NCBI RefSeq assembly: GCF_964194025.1
Contig: NC_134472.1
Coordinates: 496,001-560,000, forward strand
Reading direction: 5' to 3'
Length of the DNA stretch: 64,000 nt
DNA from: Convolutriloba macropyga
Taxonomy: Eukaryota
Shown here: positions 31,811 through 45,842 of the stretch, piece by piece
How positions within the stretch are numbered: the stretch's first letter is position 1
Layout: each line of letters begins with the position of its first letter
The notes under the pieces: generated by a model
What the model was told of the DNA's origin: nothing
Database searches by the model: none
The model's input: only the letters and a program-made list of their open reading frames with translations
Made by a program: the position numbers and the translations under genes

Positions 31811-33656
31811 ATATTTGATAATGATAGTGCCTTGGATAATTAAGTTGAAATAGTTATACAATTTCAACAGTTGAAAAGGTAACAGCATAAGCAAATTATT
31901 CTCAACTGTTGAAATTTTTTAAATCGATCTTAAGAGTGTGAAGCGTTTGTAATTAATGTTCCCAAAAAGGTTGAAAGTCTCACTGATAGAAAATTTTGGT
32001 TGATTACCTGAACTACAAGTGTGGCTAACTGAAGGTTTAAGTTAATTTGTTTCCTGAAATTTGTTTGAAGTTTGAGCTTGTATACTGCGGGGACTGGTGT
32101 TTTTGTATGCGCGGTCAGAGGAAACCGAAGTGACGGGGGGCTTTAACTCCACTTGGCCCAGTTGTTTAATCAAGATAACATTTCAGCTTTAGAGCGCAAT
32201 TTCGAAATTGTCTTCTCCAGATATTCACACAAGTGTTTTTTTGTTTCAATAGCTAAAACGTGAATGATTTGGACCTGATGCATTTCACTTTTGAAACTCG
32301 ATTGCAGCACTTGTGAAAACAAAACTTATACAAATAATTGTTTCTCAGAGAATTTTGCATCAAAAGCAAACTAAAGCAATAAATAATAACAACTATCAGA
32401 GAATTTCGACCATGACAACATAGTTATATCTTAAGAATTCCTATTTCAAGTGTTTTAGCAGTCATTCTCTTGTGGTAGACAAAAACTATCGGCTGTTTTC
32501 GAACAAAACTCGGAATCTTAATTTCCTGCCCCTGAAGAATAGTTTTTAAACAGGAAATATTGTTCATTGATGTTATTTCAATGGATTACTGAATAGAAGT
32601 GAGAGAAGAGGATGAAAGATTGTGTTTGTAGGAGACGTAACATTGAAAAACAGAACACTTGATTACTTGCAGAGAGCATCAGCAGGAACGGAGAGAAAAT
32701 GTCTGGTGAAGAATTGAAGATATCTGGATTAGAAATAAAACTGCAAGGATTTTTACTTGGCTACTGTCGTTACATTGGCTTTAAGCGAATGCCTTCACTA
32801 CATTGTGGAACTTTTCTGAAATAAAATTCAAGATTCCAGAAATTTCAAAACTTTGGCAGATAAATGTTTTTGAAAAAAAAACTTGGGAGACCATTATTAG
32901 CGAAAGTGGGTTTTTAATTCCTCTAAGTTAATAGAGACAGTGTCAACAGCTGAGGAATATATATTATTTCAGAATTGTACAAAACGAAGCCATGTTGTCG
33001 GACTCAAATTTTTATATGATCCTGAAAATGAACATAAAAGAGCTAATTTTTCAGCTTTCAACTGCTTGAGTCTCATTGAGTAAGCTTATGAAGCTGTATC
33101 AGTTTTCGACATAGCTGTGTAGTAACTACTACGGGGGACATTACAAGTTTTAAGATAGGCAATACCATATAAGGAAGGATAGAAGGGGACATGGGGGACA
33201 TTTCCAACAACAACTTTAAACATGTCCAGTTATACTTTTCAAGATGCGACGTCGAGCTTGAACGGATGAGTCATCAACCAAAATTTAGTAAAATCACGTT
33301 TTAGAATAACGTTTCTATTTATAGCTCTAAATTATTTGAGCCATTCATTTTTTTATTAGAGATTGTCTACAGCAGTAACGGTTGCAATGACTAACCGATT
33401 TGTGAAGGATGGAATTGATAGTGGCCCAGCCAATTTAGTTTTCGACGAAGCTAATAAAGAGAGACCACCATGGCGTTGCAGTTCTAATATTGTCGTTCCG
33501 CGACTAGGTAATATTCTTTGTCTAAGTTGGCATTGTTGTGCTTATGATAACCCTCTGCCTTGCCATGGTCTTTTTGATATCACAGAGCTGTGAAGAAAAG
33601 TCGATTTGGATTGCACTGCTTTCAAGTTTATTTGGTTTCATCCTGCCAAATCCTAT

Positions 33657-34297
33657 ATGAATGAAGTTTTCGTTACGCATGAAAGGGTCTTTACGGACCT
33701 TGTGAGTCCCAATAGATATGGAACTAACTTCATGTTCGACTTGTTACGAGGGTTAAAATTCTATCCTCATTTAACAAAAGTACTATTTTTTAAAGAATAC
33801 CATGAACTATTCATGAATGTACAAAGTCAGCTTCAGCATGCCAAGCTCAGTAAGTTTTCTGAAGCTGAAATAACAAAAAAATTTTTCGAACTGTTTATTG
33901 ATTTTTGATGATTCTTGCGAAGAACATTTCAACGATGAAGAATTTGCAACATCTGGCCGACATCGAAAACTTCCTGCCACCAGAGCAAGTGGTGTCGCAC
34001 AATTGACCTAAACACAAGTTAAAGCATTCTCTTCAAGTCACTACATGACATTCAGCAGATAGAATATTTCGGGAAACAGTTGAATTGTCTCCAACTGCTT
34101 ACAGAAGCTTATTAGTTCGCGACACTTGAGTCGTACGGGAGTTTGGCGATTGATCTGGAGCCGAAAACAACTAAAAGCTTACGCCTCTCATTGAACTCGA
34201 AACATCGATTTTCTATATTCCTTCACAGGAAGCAGTAATCACATCAATAGCAAATGAAAAGGAAAAACTTGGGTTTGCTGAAGCTTTGGTGCGTTAG
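33657..34297 (+). pseudogene. A32/FtsK-like packaging ATPase (Polinton), decayed
   Basis: Degenerate Walker A region RVFTDLVSPNRYGT. Walker B and arginine motif CLLIFDDSCEEHFNDEEFATSGRHRKL at 33892-33972. Downstream QSKWCRTIDLNT..LFKSLHDIQQIEYFGKQL and YGSLAIDL. Confidence 0.85.
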
Positions 34298-35394
34298 CAA
34301 TAACTCGAAATCAAAAAGTAAGAAAAATAATCTGACGAGCGATGAACGTGCTCTCGAGCGTGGTGCCTATGAACAAGTCGAAATTTAAAAGATTTGAGAC
34401 TGAGCAACGACCGCTATCTACAAAAAAATACCTTGCAGAGCCGAGAAGTAGGCTTTTTCAAACAGCTAGAGGTCATTGTCTCATTCAGTTTTTAGCTAAT
34501 TCTTTCCTACAATACTTACAAGATCATGTCAACTGAAGAATTCGTGTTGATTATGTATAATATGTTTATACAAGAATACCAACAGTTCTCACAATTTTGA
34601 AGAATCCAGAAATTTAGAAACCGGCCCATCAATTGTCAGTCCTGCAAAGAAATTCAAAACGACAAACAGCACCAGCTATAATACGTTTCATTTCAGAACA
34701 GCAAACTGATAACGTAACAACTGCTGATAAAGAAAACCAATCGATGACCAACGACATCAGCAGCAAGGTACTATATATCAATTTTATACAGGACCAAAAG
34801 TTCCAAAAAGCAAAATCTTTATAGAAACATAGTCTGAAATAATTTCCATTGACAACGAAGGCAACCTAATTTTCTCAAAACTAATACACTGAAATTTCGG
34901 CAGCCAGTTTTCTCTACGCACCTCGTCAGAACTAACAGATGTACATTATCATATACTCTATCATCTAAACATTCCCACACAATTTACCTGTATTACTTAC
35001 GCAAAAAGATTCGAGACTACCTGACGAACGAAAGAGACCTAAGCTAGAAAATGGATCTACGGATAAGAAACATAACACTGCCGCCAAGAGAGCAGAAGAA
35101 ACAGAGACTGCTAAAGCTGAAGATGAAGTCTTTGCAAACGCGGAGGAAGAAGAATTCAAACCACCGTAAGACTGGAAAAGTTTTTTGGGATGAAGTTGAG
35201 AAACTAAACAAAATCTATTCAACTAGCAGAGAATCATTTGAAAGCGTTGTCAATTTGCAAATTGAGTTGATTACAAAAAAAAAGAAGAAAGCAATGAATT
35301 TACAGCGATGAATTTACATTAGTTATCAAAAATATGCATTAGTTATACATTTGTTATAATTATCAAAGTCGTTGAAAATATTTTGAGAAAACAT

Positions 35395-36112
35395 AATGGC
35401 AGCGTTTCGAAATCAACTATCTCTGCCAATACAGCTACAAAGACAGTGGAAAGTGGCTTTAACGTCTATTTCATCCCCAAATATCAACAACATCAACTCA
35501 GCACAAATTTTTCGAATCAGGACCACCTCAACATGATGCTTCACTCAATCGATCCGGTCAACTCAGGAAAATTGGAAAAGGTATAAAAACTGGGAAGATC
35601 TTGTTCAGGGAATTATTTGGGTAGCTCATTTGACACAGTTTGACTACAAATTTGATTTCGGTACAGGAAAGGTCATTTTGAAATTTGGTAAAAACGAGCG
35701 ACTATCGTTTCCAGGCGAAAAAATTCTCAGCTTTCTTGGTTTCCAAGCGAAACCTGATCATACACAGAAAGAAATGTTTTTGGTTATAAATTAGACAGCA
35801 ATCATTACAGACATACGAGCGACTTTCCTGTTGACAGAACTTTGGATCACAATTATTTTTTGTCTAGATTGATGTCATTGAATATCATCATGTAAGTGAC
35901 TCATGTGCACCAGTACTCAAGATCATTGAGTCAGAAAGACGTTTGAAAAACGGCAGAGAGAACACTGTTACTCCTGTTCCTCGTAAATCTCATACAAATT
36001 TAGACAAACGATATTCAAAGCATCAAAATTGAGTTAAAAACACACTGGGAGACCCATTCCTTTTACTGGTTCTAGAAAAGTTGTCGCTTGTCTCAAGTTC
36101 TAGAAAATCAAT
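35395..36112 (+). pseudogene. Minor capsid/penton-like protein (Polinton), decayed
   Basis: DFPVD..FV*IDVIEYHHVSDSCAPVLKII..SIKIELK..PF-type C-terminal signature, frameshifted. Confidence 0.7.
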
Positions 36113-36118
36113 TAGATA

Positions 36119-36350
36119 ATGGAGGCTAACTACAATAGGCAAACAGCCAATTCGATGCCTCATTTCTCAGGACATTACAGGCAAAGACGAAGTGGTTTTG
36201 GAGCACTGGTTTATTCTTGGCCTGTAGCAAAGAGAATTGGCAGATCTTGTGCAAGGAGCTCCAGAGATAGCTGAATGTGCAACAAAAAAGACAGCAAGGC
36301 ACGCATTGATAAGTACATTAGCAAAACAGTTAAAAAAACAATTAGTAGGA
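36119..36350 (+). pseudogene. Small basic virion core-like protein with adenain-type cleavage motif, decayed
   Basis: MEANYNRQTANSMPHFSGHYRQRRSGFGALV resembles the RQRGSG-type motif and sits between the penton and major capsid genes. Confidence 0.55.
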
Positions 36351-36399
36351 TCAGTCCATCGCTCGGCGCATAATCAGACTTACATCTGTTGACCTTGAG

Positions 36400-37458
36400 G
36401 TAAAGTGCCGTTTTGTGCAAAGCAAGGCAGACAATTTATGTTGTACTTCTGAAGATGCCAATGCAAGTGACACACTTTTCCTTTCTTCGTTAAGTATACA
36501 TTACAATCTTTATTCGCTTATTGTAGTGTCAGCGAATGGCATCAAAATTTCATCAGCTAATGGACACTACGCGCGGAAATGCTTCACTGAAACTGAACTT
36601 TCTCATGGGTGGGACGGACACAAAAAGCTTTTGGTTGAAATGTCAAGGATAAGAATGCGAATATGAACACAACGCCATTCCAAATGCTTTTTGTCCAACA
36701 GAAGGTACTTGTTCGAAGATCGGTTCAACTTACAATATATGGTAGGGTTGCTCTGGACCTTTTTCTCATTTGGGAAGCAGTGGTGTCACCTTGCGAATGG
36801 CTTTCCGAAGATCAAAAGTTGACTTTGTTACAATTAGTGAAAACGGTGCAAAACATTATAAGGTTGAAATCTTTGGGGCTAATTTTGTTCACAAAATGAG
36901 AGTATCTGATAATGTGGTGGGAGCAATTGAGAAAACTTCTGAAAACCCCAGCCAAGACAAATCGATGCAACGACGTTATTTCCAAAGCCTTTCTCGCAGC
37001 AGCTGGACAAAAGAGCTGGATACAAGCTCTTTCCACAAAAGAACACATTCGAAGACTGCAAGTGCCGATTTTTTTGGAACGAACACTGAAAATTCGTTCC
37101 ATATAAAAAGTTATGTTTGAATGAAATAACTATTTACCACAATGGATTTGCAACTGTCGACCAGAGACGATAAGAGGCTATACTTGAATTTAATGGGAGC
37201 CTTGGCTTTCATGGAAAATGTTCACGTTATATCATTGGCTGAATTCCCCCACCACTATATGATGGTGTTTGATCTTTCTAGTACCCAGGAAGCCACACAT
37301 GATTTTATTCATCCCCAATTAACAAACCCATCTTTATGAGCTGAACTCATATTCAGTGCAGCTTTACCAAACAACATTGAAACATTATTCTTGGGAGAAA
37401 AACGTTCAACAATGTACATCGATTCTGCGGGAAACGTTTCCAAAAACGCTATGAGCTA
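36400..37458 (+). pseudogene. Major capsid protein (double jelly-roll, hexon-like; Polinton), decayed and partly deleted
   Basis: Remnants SANGHYARKCFTETELSH, IYGRVALDLF, GVTLRMAFRRSKVDF..YKVEI and HYMMVFDLSSTQEA..ELIFSAALPNNIETLFLGEKRSTMYIDS are spread over several frames. Confidence 0.8.
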
Positions 37459-37919
37459 ATGGATGAAGATCGGGTATTCAAGTTGATACAGCAATGCAAA
37501 CACTTGAAACATAAACTCAACGGTGTCTATGCCGCGGACAACTTTCCCCTGAAAATGTCACCGAATTATTTTATTAGTGTCAACGTTTTCAGCTGCTACA
37601 TCAATTGGTACATATTGAGTTGTTTTAGCAAAAAAGACTTGCGTATCCAGTTGTCTAATTTGCAGATCCCTTGGATTTACCAATTTGTTTGCATAAACAT
37701 ATTTCTGACCGCCTAGGAAGCGTCATTGCAGACACTATATATGTGGATATTATTGAAGACAGACGAGAAGCTGAAAAACCTTTGCAATGCGCAAACTCGC
37801 AAATGTGTGTACTCTGCATATGCATTGCTCGCCATATTATGAATGGTTACATTCCTTTCATTCCTGATGTAAATGAGACGACGTTGCTGTCTCTTGTTAA
37901 ACAAGACTTAGCGTTATAG
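37459..37919 (+). pseudogene. Adenain-like cysteine maturation protease (Polinton), frameshifted
   Basis: GVYAADNFP..FISVN, GTH*V (catalytic His, GxHW-type), FADPL and PLQCANSQMC (Q..C catalytic motif) across ORFs 37459..37716 and 37671..37919. Confidence 0.85.
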
Positions 37920-38175
37920 ATACAAGTTAAAACTTGATTAGGTACACTACAGGTACCCTAAGTGTCGATGCACAAGTTATTTCTCATCAAAACTCCTTAT
38001 GGGGATACAAGTTAAAGCGCGGTTAGCTACCCTAGGTACCTTTGATCAAGTTATTTTTCATCAATACGCCTTGTAAATACAGTTTAAAACTCGCTTAGGT
38101 ACCCTGCGGGTACATTAGTTGAACATTCTTAAGTTTTTTTTGCACCATACTCCTTATAGGCACAAGTTAAAACCA
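37920..38175. repeat. Degenerate ~70-85-bp tandem repeat inside the Polinton
   Basis: Units of acaagttaaa...ggtacc...aagttattt..catca..actcctta start at ~37922, 38007, 38079 and 38162. Confidence 0.7.
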
Positions 38176-38292
38176 GTTAATTTTGAATAATAAAAGTTAA
38201 ATCAGCTTCCTTTGCTTCCTATAAAAGATAGAAACTAAAGATCGAAAAAATCTTTTTGCGGCAACCAAGACTAATATGCACAATGGTGTAGT

Positions 38293-38829
38293 TTAAATCA
38301 GTCTTTGTTCCTTCAGTGTTCTGTTTTTTTTTTCAATTGCCATTTCGGCAGTTCTCCGAGAGACAACAGGAAATGATAGTGGCGCCTGTCGGGTAACGGT
38401 TGCAGTGGGTCTTAGTTGATGGGCAATTGGGTCCGGCAATCGCTTAGCTCCACTCAAAGACGAGCAACAGTGTCCCACGCTCTCTTGCGCTCGTGCCTCA
38501 CATAAAAGACTCTCAGAGCGAGTCAAAAAATTGCTCTGATCCCGCTTTGCTACGGCCCTTCTATGCCAACCCGACACCACTTGAAGTTGGCGTTTGGTCT
38601 GGCTCAACTTAGTTTCAATTTCACCACATCGCCAAACCGCCTCCTTCCGTTCGGCATCTGCGATATTTCTCTCCAAGGTCATTTGTTGGAGAAGCTCTTT
38701 ATTAAACGCCACCAGGAACATTGCCCGGTTGAATTGTGAGAGCTTGAGCACGGTGATCTCTCGCCTGGTCACGCTGTTGAATGGTGTTACGTTTTTCGGA
38801 TCTTTTCTGTTTTTGCCCTTATATTCCAT
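38293..38829 (-). CDS. Hypothetical 178-aa protein within the Polinton (predicted coiled-coil middle region)
   Basis: Uninterrupted ATG-to-stop ORF with higher GC than its flanks. A TATATAA on the minus strand at ~38976-38982 and CCAAT at ~39078-39082 lie upstream. No family recognised. Confidence 0.5.
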   Translation of the reverse strand: MEYKGKNRKDPKNVTPFNSVTRREITVLKLSQFNRAMFLVAFNKELLQQMTLERNIADAERKEAVWRCGEIETKLSQTKRQLQVVSGWHRRAVAKRDQSNFLTRSESLLCEARAQESVGHCCSSLSGAKRLPDPIAHQLRPTATVTRQAPLSFPVVSRRTAEMAIEKKNRTLKEQRLI

Positions 38830-40211
38830 AGGATTGGCTTTATGACACTAATTTTTTTGATAACCGGTAACAAAAATCCATCCAATCTTGTGCCGGTGCC
38901 GGAACGTTATTGTGCCTAAATTGAAGGATCTCTAAGGACAAAAAGTACATATTTGGGGTGTGCAAACAGACTGGTTATATAGGACTGGGGGGGGGGGGGC
39001 AAAAACAGAAAAGATCCCGTTTTTCTTGTTCGAGAGTTCGAATCATTTTGAATGGTTTAATTTAGGTTGGTGCTGTGATTGGTAAAAGGTAGAGACGGAA
39101 GAAAGAGGTTAATAGAAGACCAATAGAGTTAAAATGGAAGAATAAAGAAAAAAAACTATTAAGAAATAGAAAAAAATGAACGATGAACTCTAATTTGGAG
39201 AGAAAACTGATTTCTGGAGAGCAAATAGGCAAAAAGCGCTTGAAAAATCAAGTATTTAAACCTACGCGACTCTTTTTCCATATACTTTTTATCTCCTCTA
39301 AACTCAAGTTTATGCTCTGCAAATATAGACCCCCCAAAAATCTAGATTCGTTTTTGTTTTAAGCATTGTTTTTAGCAGAGTTGTGTACATTTGCATGAAA
39401 ATGTTTCTCTAAAACCCGGTCCCATTTTGTGATGTGTAAATATGTGCTCATTTGTGCCCATTCAAGTTGCTTTCACCGCTTCTTGCTGGGCCCTGAATAA
39501 CCGTCACACTATATAAACAACCCACTACAAACCGCCCTCAGCAATAGCCATGCATAAAAGGGGACATTATTTGCTCAAGCGAAGAACAAAATCGGAATGA
39601 TTTTTCAACGGGTCGTTTGGACAAACAGCCGATATTTTTTTCCTCCCCAGAAAAGGTTTTTTCTCGACCCATAACCCTTAGAACAATTCCACATTTTTTC
39701 GGAAGAGTGAATTTTCAAACGAAAAGTCGAAATGCCTCCCCCCCCCCCCCCCCCCCCCCCCCGTAGTAGTTACCACACAGCTATGTCTACTACTTGTATC
39801 AGAGGCTGAAGATATAGTAGCTGTAGATCTGAGGGTCACATTTTGGAACTGGTAAATTTTTGCGCCATACCTGTTCGTATTTTCACATTTGACACTAGCA
39901 GTGCATAAAAATGTGCAGAAAGTTTGAAGGTCAAGATTAAAGGTGAACTGAAGTTTGATTAATTTTGATGTGGACAATAGTGTATTCGTGATGAATGTAA
40001 ACTGATTCGTCTTGCCAACATTTCAGCATGTTTGTTCTCTGGTATTCGCATAAAAGTGTTCGTTCGCAAAGTTGTCATGATCTCCGTTTCCGTCTTTCTA
40101 TTTATTACCAACAATTGAAAAATTTAGTTGAATTTTATTTTCAGTAAAAATAGATACAGGCAAAAATTTTATTCTTGGAGTTTTCTTTTAATCTTATTAC
40201 GTTTCAGAAGT

Positions 40212-40571
40212 ATGACCGTTTGCCGGTTAGTCTTGGCTTCGTTTGTCGTTCTGGCTGTTTCGATTTTGGGTAGCAGCGTGGAAGCTGTACCGCTTCAATT
40301 CGAAATCGTGTCCTCCGCTCGAACTGTCGACATATCAACTCATCTCACCAAAATCACAACCAAATTGGAGTTAGAAAATGTTGGAGGAACATCTGCAAGC
40401 CACGTGTATTTGAGCACTGAACCAAGAATGGTTGAGAAGTTGTCCTTTTTGAGCGTGTCTGACGACGGACTGGACTCGGATGCTCTGGATGTGAGCCAGA
40501 TGAAAGAGGGTGCTAATGTATTCCACAAAGTCGCTCTTCCGAAAGCTTGTGCTAGCTCCGGACGAGTCAAG
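40212..40571 (+). CDS. RPN1: Ribophorin I (OST subunit 1), coding exon 1
   Basis: ATG at 40212, signal peptide MTVCRLVLASFVVLAVSILGSSVEA, then RTVDISTHLTKITTKLELEN. Donor AG|GTATCA after 40571, phase 0. Confidence 0.92.
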
Positions 40572-40923
40572 GTATCATTTTAAATGCTGTATTTGTATTT
40601 TGATCAGTTTTGAATGGTCGGATATTTGTCTTACGGCTACATTCTAGCATATCTTATCAGGAAACCATTCCTACGGTTTTCAAGACTCTGGGAAACTGAG
40701 AAATCATTATAGCTTGAGAAGAAAATAGTTCAACAATAATTATCAGATTTCTGTTACAAATTATTATAATTATAATTATCTCATATTTGGTCTGTAACAA
40801 TGAGTTAATGAAGTAAATTGTTGCTTCCTAATTTGAAGTGTTGAACTATATGGGCATTTTGAAACAGAAGGACCCAGGACCTCGTTATTTGTGGTCGCAT
40901 TAGCGAAATTAATTCTTATTTAG

Positions 40924-41234
40924 GTTGTGGTTTACGAAGTGTACCGTGGTCTGCTTGTGCCCTTCCCTAAGGAGATCAAACAGTCCGAGTCACAGCTCAT
41001 CACCACTACTCAGAACGTGCGATACTTCTCCCCTTACAAGTCCAGGGTCCAATCGACAGTGTTCAAGGTCGCCAGCACTAAAATAGTGTCGTACACTAAA
41101 CTGGAGCCAAGTCAAGTGGCTGACAAGGAGATTGAGTATGGACCGTTTGAGAACGTTCCCGCGAACAGCGTGGTCGATGTCAGTGTCCATGCTGAGAATA
41201 ACTCTCCCTTCCTCACAATTACTCAATTGACAAG
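40924..41234 (+). CDS. RPN1: Ribophorin I, coding exon 2
   Basis: Acceptor tttag at 40923. Encodes LVPFPKEIKQSESQL..YFSPY..IEYGPFENVP..VHAENNSPFLT. Donor AG|GTTATT, phase 2. Confidence 0.94.
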
Positions 41235-41585
41235 GTTATTGGTCGATATTATTGAGAGTAATAAAAAGTAATAATTAACGTATATAATTAATAATGCTGG
41301 AAATGTTGCATCCATCTATCTATATAATAATTCTAACTCGAATGCTATATCACCATGTTTTTGTGCACATGTTTTTGTGCGCATTAAGCATGCCGCATAG
41401 CAAAAAGAAACAAGCCGTAAAAGCCATTGACCGAAAATTTGCTGATGAACAAAAGGCAAGAGACACAAGCAATAAGCGTTAGCGTAAAGGATAAGAGCTG
41501 AGGTTGTTAAGCGAGGTGCATGGGTTCGAGCCCGAGTGGGCTCGGGGCAAGATGCATAAATTCGGGGATAAAAAATTGGGAGAAT

Positions 41586-42150
41586 GTTTTTCTTTTTCAG
41601 TTCTTTATTTCTTAACTTTTGTCCTCTTTTGTTCTCCTTATTCCTTTTTTCCTCTCCTTCTTTCTCTCTCTTCTTTGCTGTCGTTCGTTTCTCTCCGTCT
41701 TTTCTCTTTTTATCTCGTTTTTTAATTGTCTTTCTCTCGTTTTCTCTTCTTTCTTTTCTGTCTTTCTTTTCTCCCTTCCTATATCTCTTTCCATATGTCT
41801 TTCTGCATCTCTTTTTCTCATTCTTTTTCTCTGTCTTTCGTTCTCTTCTGTCTTTCTTTTCTCTCTTTCTTATCTGTTTTTTTTCTGTTGTTGTCTTTCT
41901 TTTTTCGCTTTGTTTTCTCTCCTCTCTCTATCTTTCTTCTATCTATCCTGTCTTCTGTTTCTCTGTCTTATCTCTTTCTTTTCTCTCTTTTTATCTCTTT
42001 TTTGTCTTCCTTTTCCGTTCTTCTTGCCTTCTTTTCTCTTTTCTCTTTTCTTTATTTTTTCTCTCATTGTTTTCTATCCTTCTTCTCTTTACTCTCTTTC
42101 TATTGTTTTTGGGCTTTCCTATCTTTCTTTTCTCTTTGTTTTCTTTTTTA
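41586..42150. repeat. Low-complexity (T/C)-rich tract in RPN1 intron 2
   Basis: The + strand is almost entirely pyrimidines, which produces spurious F/S/L-rich ORFs. Confidence 0.9.
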
Positions 42151-43024
42151 AAAGCCGCCCTCATCTTCTCAGCCGGCTATTATTGCGCTCGTATTTTTTT
42201 TTTACTTCGTCAAACTTTTTTTTGCTTTACCATTTTGCCGCTTTTTCGACATTTTGCGTGAAATCTTTTTGACTTCTCTAGGCTAGTTCCTCTCTTCTCT
42301 CATTCTGCTAAAAGTGAATTTGAACAGCAGTTGCTAAGCAAAGCAATTCAAAATGAACAGAGTCGGTATAAAAAATTGAAGTCAGAAATAGAAACGGGAT
42401 AAACCCATAAAGCCCAATTTTAGATGCCCGCTATTTGAACGTCGTTCCTATAAGTCTTAGTTACCACCTCTAATGCTTATTGGTGTTGATAGTAGCCCCT
42501 GTAGCCTCTCTCTATGAAACAGAAGTATGTTCAACTACGAAATGCCATCAAAATAATTCGGACTTAAAAAATATTTTTGTACAAAAATCTTTTTTTTTCA
42601 ATATATTCTATTCGTTCAATCCCAATCATGCTTATTGGAATCAACGGTGGCTATTTTCCGGCAATCTGCCGGGTATGTTTTTTAATTGCTCTCAAACAAA
42701 ATTTTTAGCAATTATATTATCCTGCTGGTCCTTTTATATGCGATTGTTTGACCAATTTTTCATCTGATCTATTGTAATTTTTGTCCTCAAAAGGGAGATT
42801 CACAGGTACCGCCCACCGGGCATTAAGTTCTCTTAGAACCTTTCAGCTAAGTATTCTCCAAGTACAAGATTCGCAGAAACTGTTTTGGAGTCTTATACTT
42901 ATGTTGTGAAGGGCAGTTCTTAAAAATTGAAGCCAGCGTCACCAAACCGTGGCTCGCTACTAACGAGGCCAACTGCTCGCAGGACATGTGAGAGCAGTTC
43001 GTCCGACGTTATTTGGTTATGTTT

Positions 43025-44305
43025 CTTGCATTTTATCTTTCTCTTCCTTTTCTTTTTCTTCTTATCTGACTTTCTTTTCTCTCCTCTTTCTGCATCTTTT
43101 TCTCATTCTTTTTCTCTGTCTTTCGTTCTCTTCTGTCTTTCTGTTCTGTCTTATCTCTCTTTCTTCTGTGTCTTCTGTTTTGCTTCTCGCTTTCTCTCTC
43201 TCTATCTTTTTCTCTTCTTTCTTTTCTTTTGTTTTCTCTCTCTTCTCTTTAGTTTTTCTTTGTTTTTATTTCCCATCTTTCGTTTTTCTCTTTTCTATCT
43301 TTCATTTCTCTTTCTTTCCTTTTTTCTTTTCTCTCTTTCTTCTCTGTTTCTTTTCCGTCGCTGTCTTTCTTGTTTCGCTTTCTTTTCTCTCCTCTCTCTC
43401 TCTATCTCTCTTTACCTATCTATCTCTCTATTTTTCTCTTCCTTCTTTCTCTGCTTTTTTCTTTTCTTCTTTCTTGTCTGACTTCCTTTTCTCTCCTTCC
43501 TGTCTTTCTTTTTTTCCTCTCCTTTTCTGATTCTCGTTTTTTTCTTTCTCTTTCTTTTCCTGTTTTTTTTCTCGTTTTATATTTTCTCGTTCTCTCTTTC
43601 TTTTCTCTCTTTCCTTTCTGTCTTTCTTTCTTTTGTCACTGTTTCTTTTCTCTTTCCGGCCGTCCCTTTTATTTAACTTTTTGCTCTCTCTTTTTTACCC
43701 CCTCTCTCTTTCTTCGCTTCCTGTTCTTTTTCTTTTGTGTCCTTCTTTCTTTTCTCTTTCCTGTTGTTCGTTTATCTCTTTAATTTTCCCCTTCTTTTCT
43801 CCCTTTTTTCTCGTGTTTTCTCCTTCTTTCATCTCTTTTTTTCACTTTTTTTCTTTCTTTTCTCCATTTCTTTTCGCTTTTTCTGTTTATCTGTTTTTTT
43901 CTTTCGCTCTCTCTCTCTCTCTCTCTCTCTAGGTCTATGTTTTAGGTCCATCTTTTTTGTCTTTGTTCTTTCTCAGCTTTTCCTTCTTTTTTTGTCATTT
44001 TTATCTCAGTCTCGCGTAAGCGTTGTCCTTTTTTCGCATTTCTTACTATTTTTTTCTTCATACTTTCTGATATTCATTGTTCTTCTTTTTTCTTTTTTTT
44101 CTGGTCTTTTTTAGCTCGTTTTTCTTGTTTTATCTCGCTGATTGTTTTTTGTTTGCTTTTTCTCACTTGATCCTTTACTGACTCGTTCTCTCGTTTTTTT
44201 CTCTCTCTTCTCGTTTTCTCTTTTCTTTGTTCTATTTCTTCTCGTTATCTTTCGGTGTTTATTTCTTTTTGCTGTTTCTTTCCTTTTTCTTCCTCTATCT
44301 TTTAT
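43025..44305. repeat. Second low-complexity (T/C)-rich tract in RPN1 intron 2, including a (CT)n microsatellite at ~43907-43930
   Basis: Pyrimidine-dominated + strand. It shares a ~50-nt string with the first tract (~41802 vs ~43089). Confidence 0.9.
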
Positions 44306-44890
44306 TGGTTGACGTTCATCGTTAAATGAAAGCTCTGTTTCCCCACTTATGGTGACTTATATAGCGCTAAATCGATTACTAGATTACCGATTGATGATTT
44401 GATTCCCCTGCGAACCTTTTAAACGGCTTCTCTGAAGCTCTCGCGGGCCTGCTAGTTTTTGTTGAATTACTCAAACGTTTGAAATAAACCAAAAAATTCA
44501 AATGCTCATCGATGTGGTCATTTGAATGGCGACATGTATTCCTGTGCCTCCATTTCATCTGCTCTTCTACGTTTAAATTTCTACTCACTGAATAGTGGAA
44601 CGTTCGCCTATTTCAACTTTGTGACATGCTCTACTTTTCCGTAAACCTATTCTGTAACGGAATGGTTTTGCCACTTCGATTTGCAGAAGTCTGATTCGAA
44701 CGTCAGACAAATATACCCTCGTGAATGTTAGAGGTTTGAAATAATCGTGACTAGCATTGTTTGCGCAGTATAGGATTACTATGTACAGGACGAGTGACTG
44801 ATTTTATGGTTTTTAGTTAGTGTGACGTCAGGAATCGCAATTGTTGTGTTCAAAGTTTTGAGACTGGCTATAAGTTGTAATTGTGTTTAG

Positions 44891-45842
44891 GTGGGTTGAG
44901 GTGTCACACTGGGGTGGAAATATTGCGATCGAAGAGGCAATCAAACTTCAACACTCTGGTGCCAAACTGAAGGGTTCATTCTCACGATTTGACTACATGT
45001 ACCTCAGATCATATGATGGAGTACCCTCTGTCAAATCATACAAGACCGTGTTGCCTGCTGGTGCCAAGAATGTCTACTATAGGGACGAAATTGGAAACAT
45101 TTCAACCAGCAACATGATGGAACTGCTCGACTCTGTTGAACTGGAGATCAGACCTCGCTATCCTCTCTTTGGTGGATGGGAGACCCATTACCTCCTGGGA
45201 TATAACCTTCCTAGCTTCCAATACCTCTTCAGTCGAGGTTCCAAGTATATGCTCAAAATGCGATTCGTTGACCACGTGTTTGATGATATGTCTATTGACA
45301 GAGCCGAGATCAGAATTGTGCTTCCTGAGGGCGCCTCTGATATTAAAGTCAATGTGCCCTACTCCTATGATCGCCTGGAAGACTCTCTCCATTACACCTT
45401 CCTTGACTTTTCTGGGCGACCGGTTGTAAGCTTGGGAAAGAGCAACCTGGTAGAAGATCATATCCAAGACTTCGAGTTGACATATTCGTTCAACCCGGTG
45501 TTTTTGCTACGAGAACCTCTGATGATCATAACTGGTCTCATGATTGTATTCCTGTCCGTCATCCTCTTCGTCCGACTGGACTTCTCAATCTCGATTGACA
45601 ACATGGCAGAAGCCAAGATGAGAGTTGCTGGTGCGGTTGAGCAGATCTTTGCGCTGGAGAACCGCCGCGAGGCACTCTGTCACAAGTTGGAAGAGGCAGT
45701 TGCCACTTTCAGGAAGACGAAGGATCAGGATGCGTTGAACAACACCCGAAAGGCAGTCGAGGCTGAACTGAAAGAGGTGAAGGGCCAAGTGGAGCAGGTT
45801 GGAAAGAGCGTCAAGGAGGATTCACCGGATGTCAGCGAGAAG
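44891..45842 (+). CDS. RPN1: Ribophorin I, coding exon 3
   Basis: Acceptor tttag at 44890. Encodes EVSHWGGNIAIEE, FSRFDY, YYRDEIGNISTS, PRYPLFGGW and the TM helix LREPLMIITGLMIVFLSVILFVRLDFSI. Donor AG|GTATGA, phase 0. Confidence 0.97.

Follow-up and report, generated by a model that had tools for sequence, protein, structure and literature searches.

The 64,000-nucleotide window of Convolutriloba macropyga DNA considered here (contig NC_134472.1, positions 496,001 to 560,000, numbered from 1 in what follows) contains a 6,694-bp element, at 33101-39794, which is bounded by terminal inverted repeats (TIRs) and holds the remains of genes of the Polinton, or Maverick, type. Its 37-bp arms are complementary at 33 of 37 bases and have AGT-type ends, the right end of the element being ...TCTACTACT, and on both flanks lies a perfect 6-bp target-site duplication (TSD), TGTATC, a 6/6 match for which the chance at window composition is 3.7e-4. 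Other copies of the same Polinton family in the genome also have a 6-bp TSD. In these respects the original prediction, which had described a TIR-bounded element with a perfect target duplication from the letters of the window, was accurate.

Gene identities were taken from the natural frames of longer family copies in the same genome and then mapped to the window by tblastn (Table 1), while a Pfam search with 21 broken frames of the element itself returned nothing useful and one chance-level match. Remnants of a packaging ATPase, penton, PW, major capsid protein (MCP) and adenain-type protease lie on the same strand, as had been predicted, the MCP remnant being ~50-57% identical to a family frame. 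PW, recognised by eye and DNA match, is named by position only (after PMC8097293), the family PW being a basic 145-aa open reading frame (ORF) between penton and MCP. The predicted lack of a protein-primed DNA polymerase (pPolB) also holds, since neither pPolB, nor the zinc-finger frame, nor the ORF downstream has a match anywhere in the 64-kb window at E<=1 (tblastn). Two other claims fared less well. No integrase motif had been seen, yet the 5' part of a retroviral-like integrase gene is present, the family frame matching 35069-35266 with 31 of 66 residues identical (47%, E 1e-9; tblastn), and the virion module had been thought to be all that was kept, whereas two more core ORFs, a small membrane ORF and a right-arm ORF remain as remnants and PW and MCP are themselves truncated.

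Table 1. Features of the element, its ends and its deletion junctions (window positions)
Feature	Position	Strand	Recognised by
Left TSD, TGTATC	33095-33100		
Left TIR, AGT start, 4 differences from right arm	33101-33137	+	
Small hydrophobic (membrane) ORF remnant, frameshifted; 92 aa in family copy	33387-33660	+	translations compared by eye, DNA match
Packaging ATPase remnant; 7 indels (5 frameshifting), 2 stops	33663-34300	+	tblastn with family frame
Remnant of ~105-aa ORF, downstream neighbour of ATPase in family	34250-34536	+	by eye, DNA match
Remnant of ~243-aa ORF preceding integrase; no Pfam family	34526-35190	+	tblastn
Retroviral-like integrase 5' stub, rve core lost	35069-35290	+	tblastn
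Deletion junction 1 (integrase core); 742-846 bp absent against 4/5 relatives, 249 bp against the fifth	35285-35345		
Minor capsid (penton) remnant; 8 indels (6 frameshifting), 3 stops	about 35296-36105	+	tblastn
PW (basic, putative core protein) remnant, 3' third lost	36119-36379	+	by eye and DNA match only
Major capsid protein remnant (double jelly roll in family); 14 indels (10 frameshifting), 1 stop	36373-37460	+	tblastn
Deletion junction 2; 281-312 bp absent against 5/5 relatives, PW end and first ~58 of 434 MCP codons gone	36373-36393		
Adenain-type protease remnant; 3 indels (2 frameshifting), 2 stops	37459-37903	+	tblastn
Deletion junction 3; adenain-to-array spacing 7 bp against 5.6-20.1 kb (median 7.6 kb) in 17/17 relatives	37903-37911		
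Last ~3 units of the family's ~83-bp tandem array	37911-38173	+	
Family right-arm ORF remnant (26%, E 2.6e-8)	38296-38742	-	tblastn
Nested 220-bp miniature inverted-repeat transposable element (MITE), 21-bp perfect inverted ends, 8-bp TSD CGTTTTTC, high copy number	38798-39017		
Right TIR, end ACTACT	39758-39794	-	
Right TSD, TGTATC	39795-39800		

The full-size family and the missing blocks

Many copies of the family, 15-30 kb long, are present in the genome, with ends and gene order as in the window element and with integrase and pPolB in addition. Forty regions were fetched around matches to the element and to the TIRs, 33 with family genes and seven without (a few were cut by the fetch), and in 18 of the 33 gene-bearing regions 82% or more of the integrase frame and 88% or more of the pPolB frame are present in the same order. 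This order is TIR, ATPase, two ORFs, integrase, penton, PW, MCP, protease, zinc finger, pPolB, ORF, ~83-bp array, right arm and TIR, with all core genes on one strand and short TIRs (~37 bp plus G/C runs). The frames match Pox_A32 for the ATPase (E 4e-4, under the Pfam cut-off, with a Walker A-like motif), rve for the integrase (E 1.5e-10), Peptidase_C5 for the protease (E 5e-7) and DNA_pol_B_2 for the polymerase (E 2.7e-16), and there is also a C2H2 zinc-finger frame. The MCP was identified by fold search, a sequence search of the PDB having given 0 matches: the model of its frame (pLDDT 86.4) is a double jelly roll resembling the Sputnik MCP (E 2e-14, TM 0.65). The model of the penton frame (pLDDT 71.4) finds the mavirus penton (Z 11.8, root-mean-square deviation 13.2, 229 aligned) and Sputnik chain N (Z 10.6). 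The family capsid protein has two named relatives in an acoel worm, and the element was analysed as a provirus-like sequence of an animal. The nearest relatives of the window copy are ~76-83% identical to it, and the whole element, when compared with the rest of the assembly, has 89 matches, none of the non-self ones longer than 200 bp being above 81% identity (best 40 of 2873 candidates).

Compared with its relatives, the window copy has lost three blocks (junctions 1 to 3 in Table 1), the breakpoints of which come from separate left and right local alignments, the global pairwise alignment having scattered large gaps. Junction 1, which lies where the fifth relative is short as well, extends to about the start of the penton, with ~30 bp of extra, locally repeated sequence after it; junction 2 cuts into the virion module; and the block gone at junction 3 holds the zinc-finger ORF, pPolB and one further ORF in the relatives. 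In ATPase, penton, PW and MCP there are also smaller gaps, of 16-41 bp, which are seen against each of the five relatives. The remainder looks like a tidy virion module because junction 1 stops near the start of the penton and junction 3 sets in where adenain ends. At the junctions there are short overlaps and filler copied from nearby. Two further candidate losses were dropped: removal of the penton start by junction 1, since the start region of the penton seems present, and a fourth deletion at the left end, where two relatives with the same TIR variant share the same simple end.

The element is a single broken copy of an ordinary Polinton family, and very probably it was of full length on insertion and decayed afterwards in the chromosome. 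A full-length Polinton would have been inserted by the family's own integrase, making the 6-bp TSD, and three or more separate deletions would then have removed ~9 kb of it within the host chromosome, probably in the course of error-prone break repair, to which the short overlaps and copied filler point. The remaining genes would have decayed without selection, by point changes and small indels, a MITE would have inserted in the right arm, and the locus appears still to be losing DNA, a further 2.85-kb deletion form being found in public runs. Lacking pPolB, the element is a defective derivative and not an autonomous member of the Polintons/Mavericks; its integrase is there by descent, as a stub that is not functional, and the element has no function as a unit.

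Decay, copies and a second form of the locus

Over 932 aligned codons (ATPase, penton, MCP and protease), comparison with the frames of a reference copy reveals 32 indels, 23 of them frameshifting, and 8 stops. Changes private to the window fall 74/65/57 on the three codon positions (p 0.33), 20 silent and 97 replacing, with a ratio of replacing to silent changes (pN/pS) of 1.35 (p 0.26 against neutrality); changes common to other copies fall 103/81/240, with a pN/pS of 0.21. The kept genes are under no purifying selection and show a neutral decay pattern. The terminal MCP branch of the window copy, 0.145, is the second longest of 25 copies (0.004-0.03 in the young group), from which we infer that the insertion is old relative to the other copies.

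Is the structure repeated? Junction searches, in which the best candidates were scored, point to a negative answer, none of the non-self matches spanning junction 1 (0 of 49, best 40 of 298 candidates), junction 2 (0 of 90, best 40 of 639) or junction 3 (0 of 54, best 40 of 191). With the right arm beyond the MITE, for which all 14 candidates were scored, the best non-self matches are 86% over 171 bp and 81% over 311 bp. A TIR pattern search, in which many matches are unpaired and more diverged TIRs are missed, gave 87 matches in the genome against 1 in a control, and 24 paired units: 13 of 15-30 kb, seven of 151-176 bp and one each of 1.4, 3.6, 3.9 and 6.7 kb, so that the window element is the only unit of 4-15 kb among them. 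The further copies of ~6.7 kb, with the same structure at different TSDs, that the original prediction had envisaged were thus found by none of the TIR, junction and right-arm searches, nor did these searches find the junctions shared at several TSDs that would mark an amplified non-autonomous family.

The same holds for the envisaged partner with the same TIR, carrying only pPolB and integrase. A search with pPolB, in which 111 of 5222 candidates were scored, returned 112 matches; 93 of these, below 88% identity, are from other families, and 19/19 at 88% identity or more sit 2.5-2.7 kb from an adenain match, so that no polymerase-only partner was seen within the family. That the element belongs to a satellite or segmented family with only capsid genes, replicated and integrated by such a partner, is extremely improbable. 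Both enzymes are indeed absent as functional genes, the deletions are roughly gene-aligned, and segmented relatives of Polintons exist (Vesanto virus, PMC8363768), but the element contains an integrase stub, its capsid gene lacks the first ~58 codons and all its virion genes are frameshifted. Intact genes under purifying selection, as a satellite or segment would need, are not what is found here; there is no second copy in the searches above, and a second form of the locus, described below, has lost the virion genes completely. Of the two explanations originally offered, the deletion derivative thus stands, in view of the full-length relatives and the integrase stub, and the satellite or segmented family is refuted, because the structure turned up a single time, the majority of the gene-bearing relatives are of full length and an integrase remnant lies inside.

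Five public runs contain the stretch, none of them on record as RNA. Contigs of four were compared, and three of these runs (X1, X2 and X4) are from one study and may include the source of the assembly. X1, X2 and X4 contigs bridge all three junctions with no differing letter (35063-35658, 36158-36570 and 37536-37989), and the left and right ends are bridged by X5 contigs and by X1 and X2 contigs, respectively. The junctions are therefore not an error of this assembly. Tandem arrays and a poly-C near the right end are admittedly hard to assemble, but with every junction bridged and the TSD intact there is practically no chance that a full-length copy was collapsed or mis-joined.

Contigs of X1, X2 and X4 also include a joint between 35106 and 37960, by which 2,853 bp are left out: the integrase stub, penton, PW, MCP and protease. 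Depth inside the skipped span is about half of that outside (10-18.5 against 29 in X2 and 26-41 against 71 in X4, less clear in X1), and the supporting side of the joint is 30 letters long. This joint is most likely a second allele of the locus. The 11-letter filler at the joint copies sequence 3 bp beyond the junction, and templated fillers mark polymerase-theta end joining, the deletions of which are typically 50-200 bp (PMC4032859); because of that typical size, a repair route can only be proposed for the kb-scale losses seen here. Run X5, without cover over 35170-37482 and with no contig joining across, was not used as evidence.

Other copies have lost genes in other combinations. The 15.3-kb copy at C13:23.37 Mb is without integrase and keeps pPolB, the 3.9-kb copy on C2797 has the ATPase only, the 3.6-kb copy at C7:74.43 Mb is without MCP and protease, and the copies at C11:21.6 and 21.7 Mb are without penton. 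It is conceivable, though unlikely, that in the window copy one or more of the large deletions (pPolB block, integrase core) arose during free Polinton replication and that the defective genome was inserted once, by an integrase supplied in trans, before decaying, which would still make it a dead one-off. A perfect TSD is expected either way, the genome has many pPolB frames that look helper-competent, TIR-bounded units of 175-217 bp, 3.6 kb and 3.9 kb have 6/6 TSDs of their own, and the 3.9-kb copy likewise rejoins in the repeat array, but this array, at 0.3-6 kb, is a large target for chance breakpoints. Moreover, the 2.85-kb deletion form in three runs testifies to kb-scale loss going on in place, the short copies all have different breakpoints with none found amplified, and the sole near-identical pair of minis has common flanks and so reflects host duplication. 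An equally doubtful generalisation is that the Polintons of this genome throw off defective genomes during replication and that a helper integrase inserts them, the products being the 6.7-, 3.6- and 3.9-kb copies together with the TIR-to-TIR minis of 150-220 bp; were it true, such copies would be a fossil record of defective-interfering-like Polinton genomes.

Insertion at full length followed by decay nevertheless has several points to answer: (i) the order 'insert, then delete' is not directly shown, because neither an empty-site joint nor a full-length allele was seen in the contigs of the four runs, although contigs cannot show absence, (ii) the two large deletions are roughly gene-aligned, junction 1 lying near the penton start and junction 3 at the adenain end, (iii) the uniqueness of the window structure is a strong indication and not a census, and (iv) the count of private changes is biased upward, third positions being more often shared by chance. 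Because this count under-calls silent changes, the comparison was repeated against old-subfamily copies only, taking all differences: over 769 codons, at 12% divergence, these fall 97/80/103 on the codon positions (p 0.22), with a pN/pS of 0.79 overall and of 0.92-1.2 in three genes. MCP alone has some silent excess (pN/pS 0.56) and a branch apart from the old copies, which suggests that part of its divergence predates the decay and that there was some functional evolution before insertion.

Known systems and other observations

Like non-autonomous DNA transposons mobilised in trans, the element has intact ends and internally deleted mobility genes; unlike them, it shows no amplification in the searches, in which its junctions were found once. 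Non-autonomous Polintons were reportedly described by Kapitonov and Jurka in 2006. The family itself resembles Polintons/Mavericks in its (AGT)2 // (ACT)2-type ends, its 6-bp TSD and its order of integrase, minor capsid, PW, major capsid and protease, and it carries pPolB, rve integrase, ATPase, protease and both capsid genes, whereas the window copy is without pPolB and the integrase core. The family differs in its short TIRs and in having its core genes on one strand, the latter as reported for Xenopus tropicalis elements in PMC8097293, which also gives the run from integrase through penton, PW and MCP to protease as the conserved (second) module of vertebrate Mavericks and counts 96% of vertebrate Maverick loci as degraded fossils.

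Two other groups invite comparison. Bidnaviruses and the Drosophila Vesanto virus are likewise TIR-bounded molecules with structural genes and no polymerase, but they are free virus segments with common ends (PMC8363768), whereas the genes of the window element are broken, its layout is a subset of that of a monopartite genome which the same host carries, and no polymerase-only partner was seen among the close pPolB matches. Polinton-like viruses (PLVs) have a morphogenesis module without pPolB or rve integrase (PMC11161782), a feature shared by the window element; they encode other replication proteins, whereas none was seen in the examined region of the element, the layout of which is colinear with a true Polinton. 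Its descent is from an ordinary Polinton family, and neither segmented relatives nor PLVs fit. Literature searches listed no published account of capsid-only Polinton satellites. A genuine one would be a new life-style for Polintoviricetes, and the window locus is not one. The negative lesson is that clean ends and a tidy 'virion-only' set can come from chance deletions, which suffice where capsid genes happen to adjoin and the polymerase sits in one block.

The genome as a whole is a rich resource, with young and old copies of several families, for dating Polinton invasions and measuring host erosion. It has at least 111 pPolB loci, in identity bands of 88-100%, about 64-71% and about 60-65%, many with open frames of more than 900 aa, which are several Polinton families, some of them young. 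The pPolB of the present family has an endonuclease VII-like insert (PF02945, E 8e-5 to 5e-4, just under the cut-off; L061:1-2334 and L062:9541-10000). The ~83-bp array before the right arm ranges among copies, L032 (G000:C7:56.406-56.412 Mb) included, from under 0.5 kb (0.3 kb) to over 6 kb; in the window its three diverged units were not recovered by TRF and were recognised by other sequence comparisons.

Tiny TIR-TIR units of 154-217 bp are found at G000:C10:2831603-2831777, C12:19896751-19896926, C12:20062064-20062239, C15:27724262-27724478 and C9:54154350-54154503, all but the last (which was not fetched) with a 6/6 TSD of their own. Internally they are only 57-64% alike, except for the C12 pair, which has common flanks and is a host duplication, and they are either extreme deletion relics or minis inserted in trans. 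One old subfamily has an extra left-end unit of 150-170 bp, consisting of a TIR and then an inverted TIR, before the body and inside the TSD (G000:C13:23372393-23372546, C2797:56751-56921, C2:50.564 Mb, C11:21635600-21635750 and C11:21749496-21749647), and at C7:1.19 Mb, C4:0.349 Mb and C2672 two TIRs in the same direction lie 170-211 bp apart.

The MITE nested in the right arm of the window element, which we take to be hAT-like going by the length of its TSD, has dozens of copies in the genome at 82-97% identity (among the best 40 candidates). Outside the element, a host ribophorin I gene (40128-40583; Pfam E 8.5e-9) starts ~0.4 kb to the right of the insertion. It is followed at 41001-45000 by a very T-rich, strongly skewed stretch (AT skew -0.87 and GC skew -0.6 at 43-44 kb), which is probably a simple repeat.

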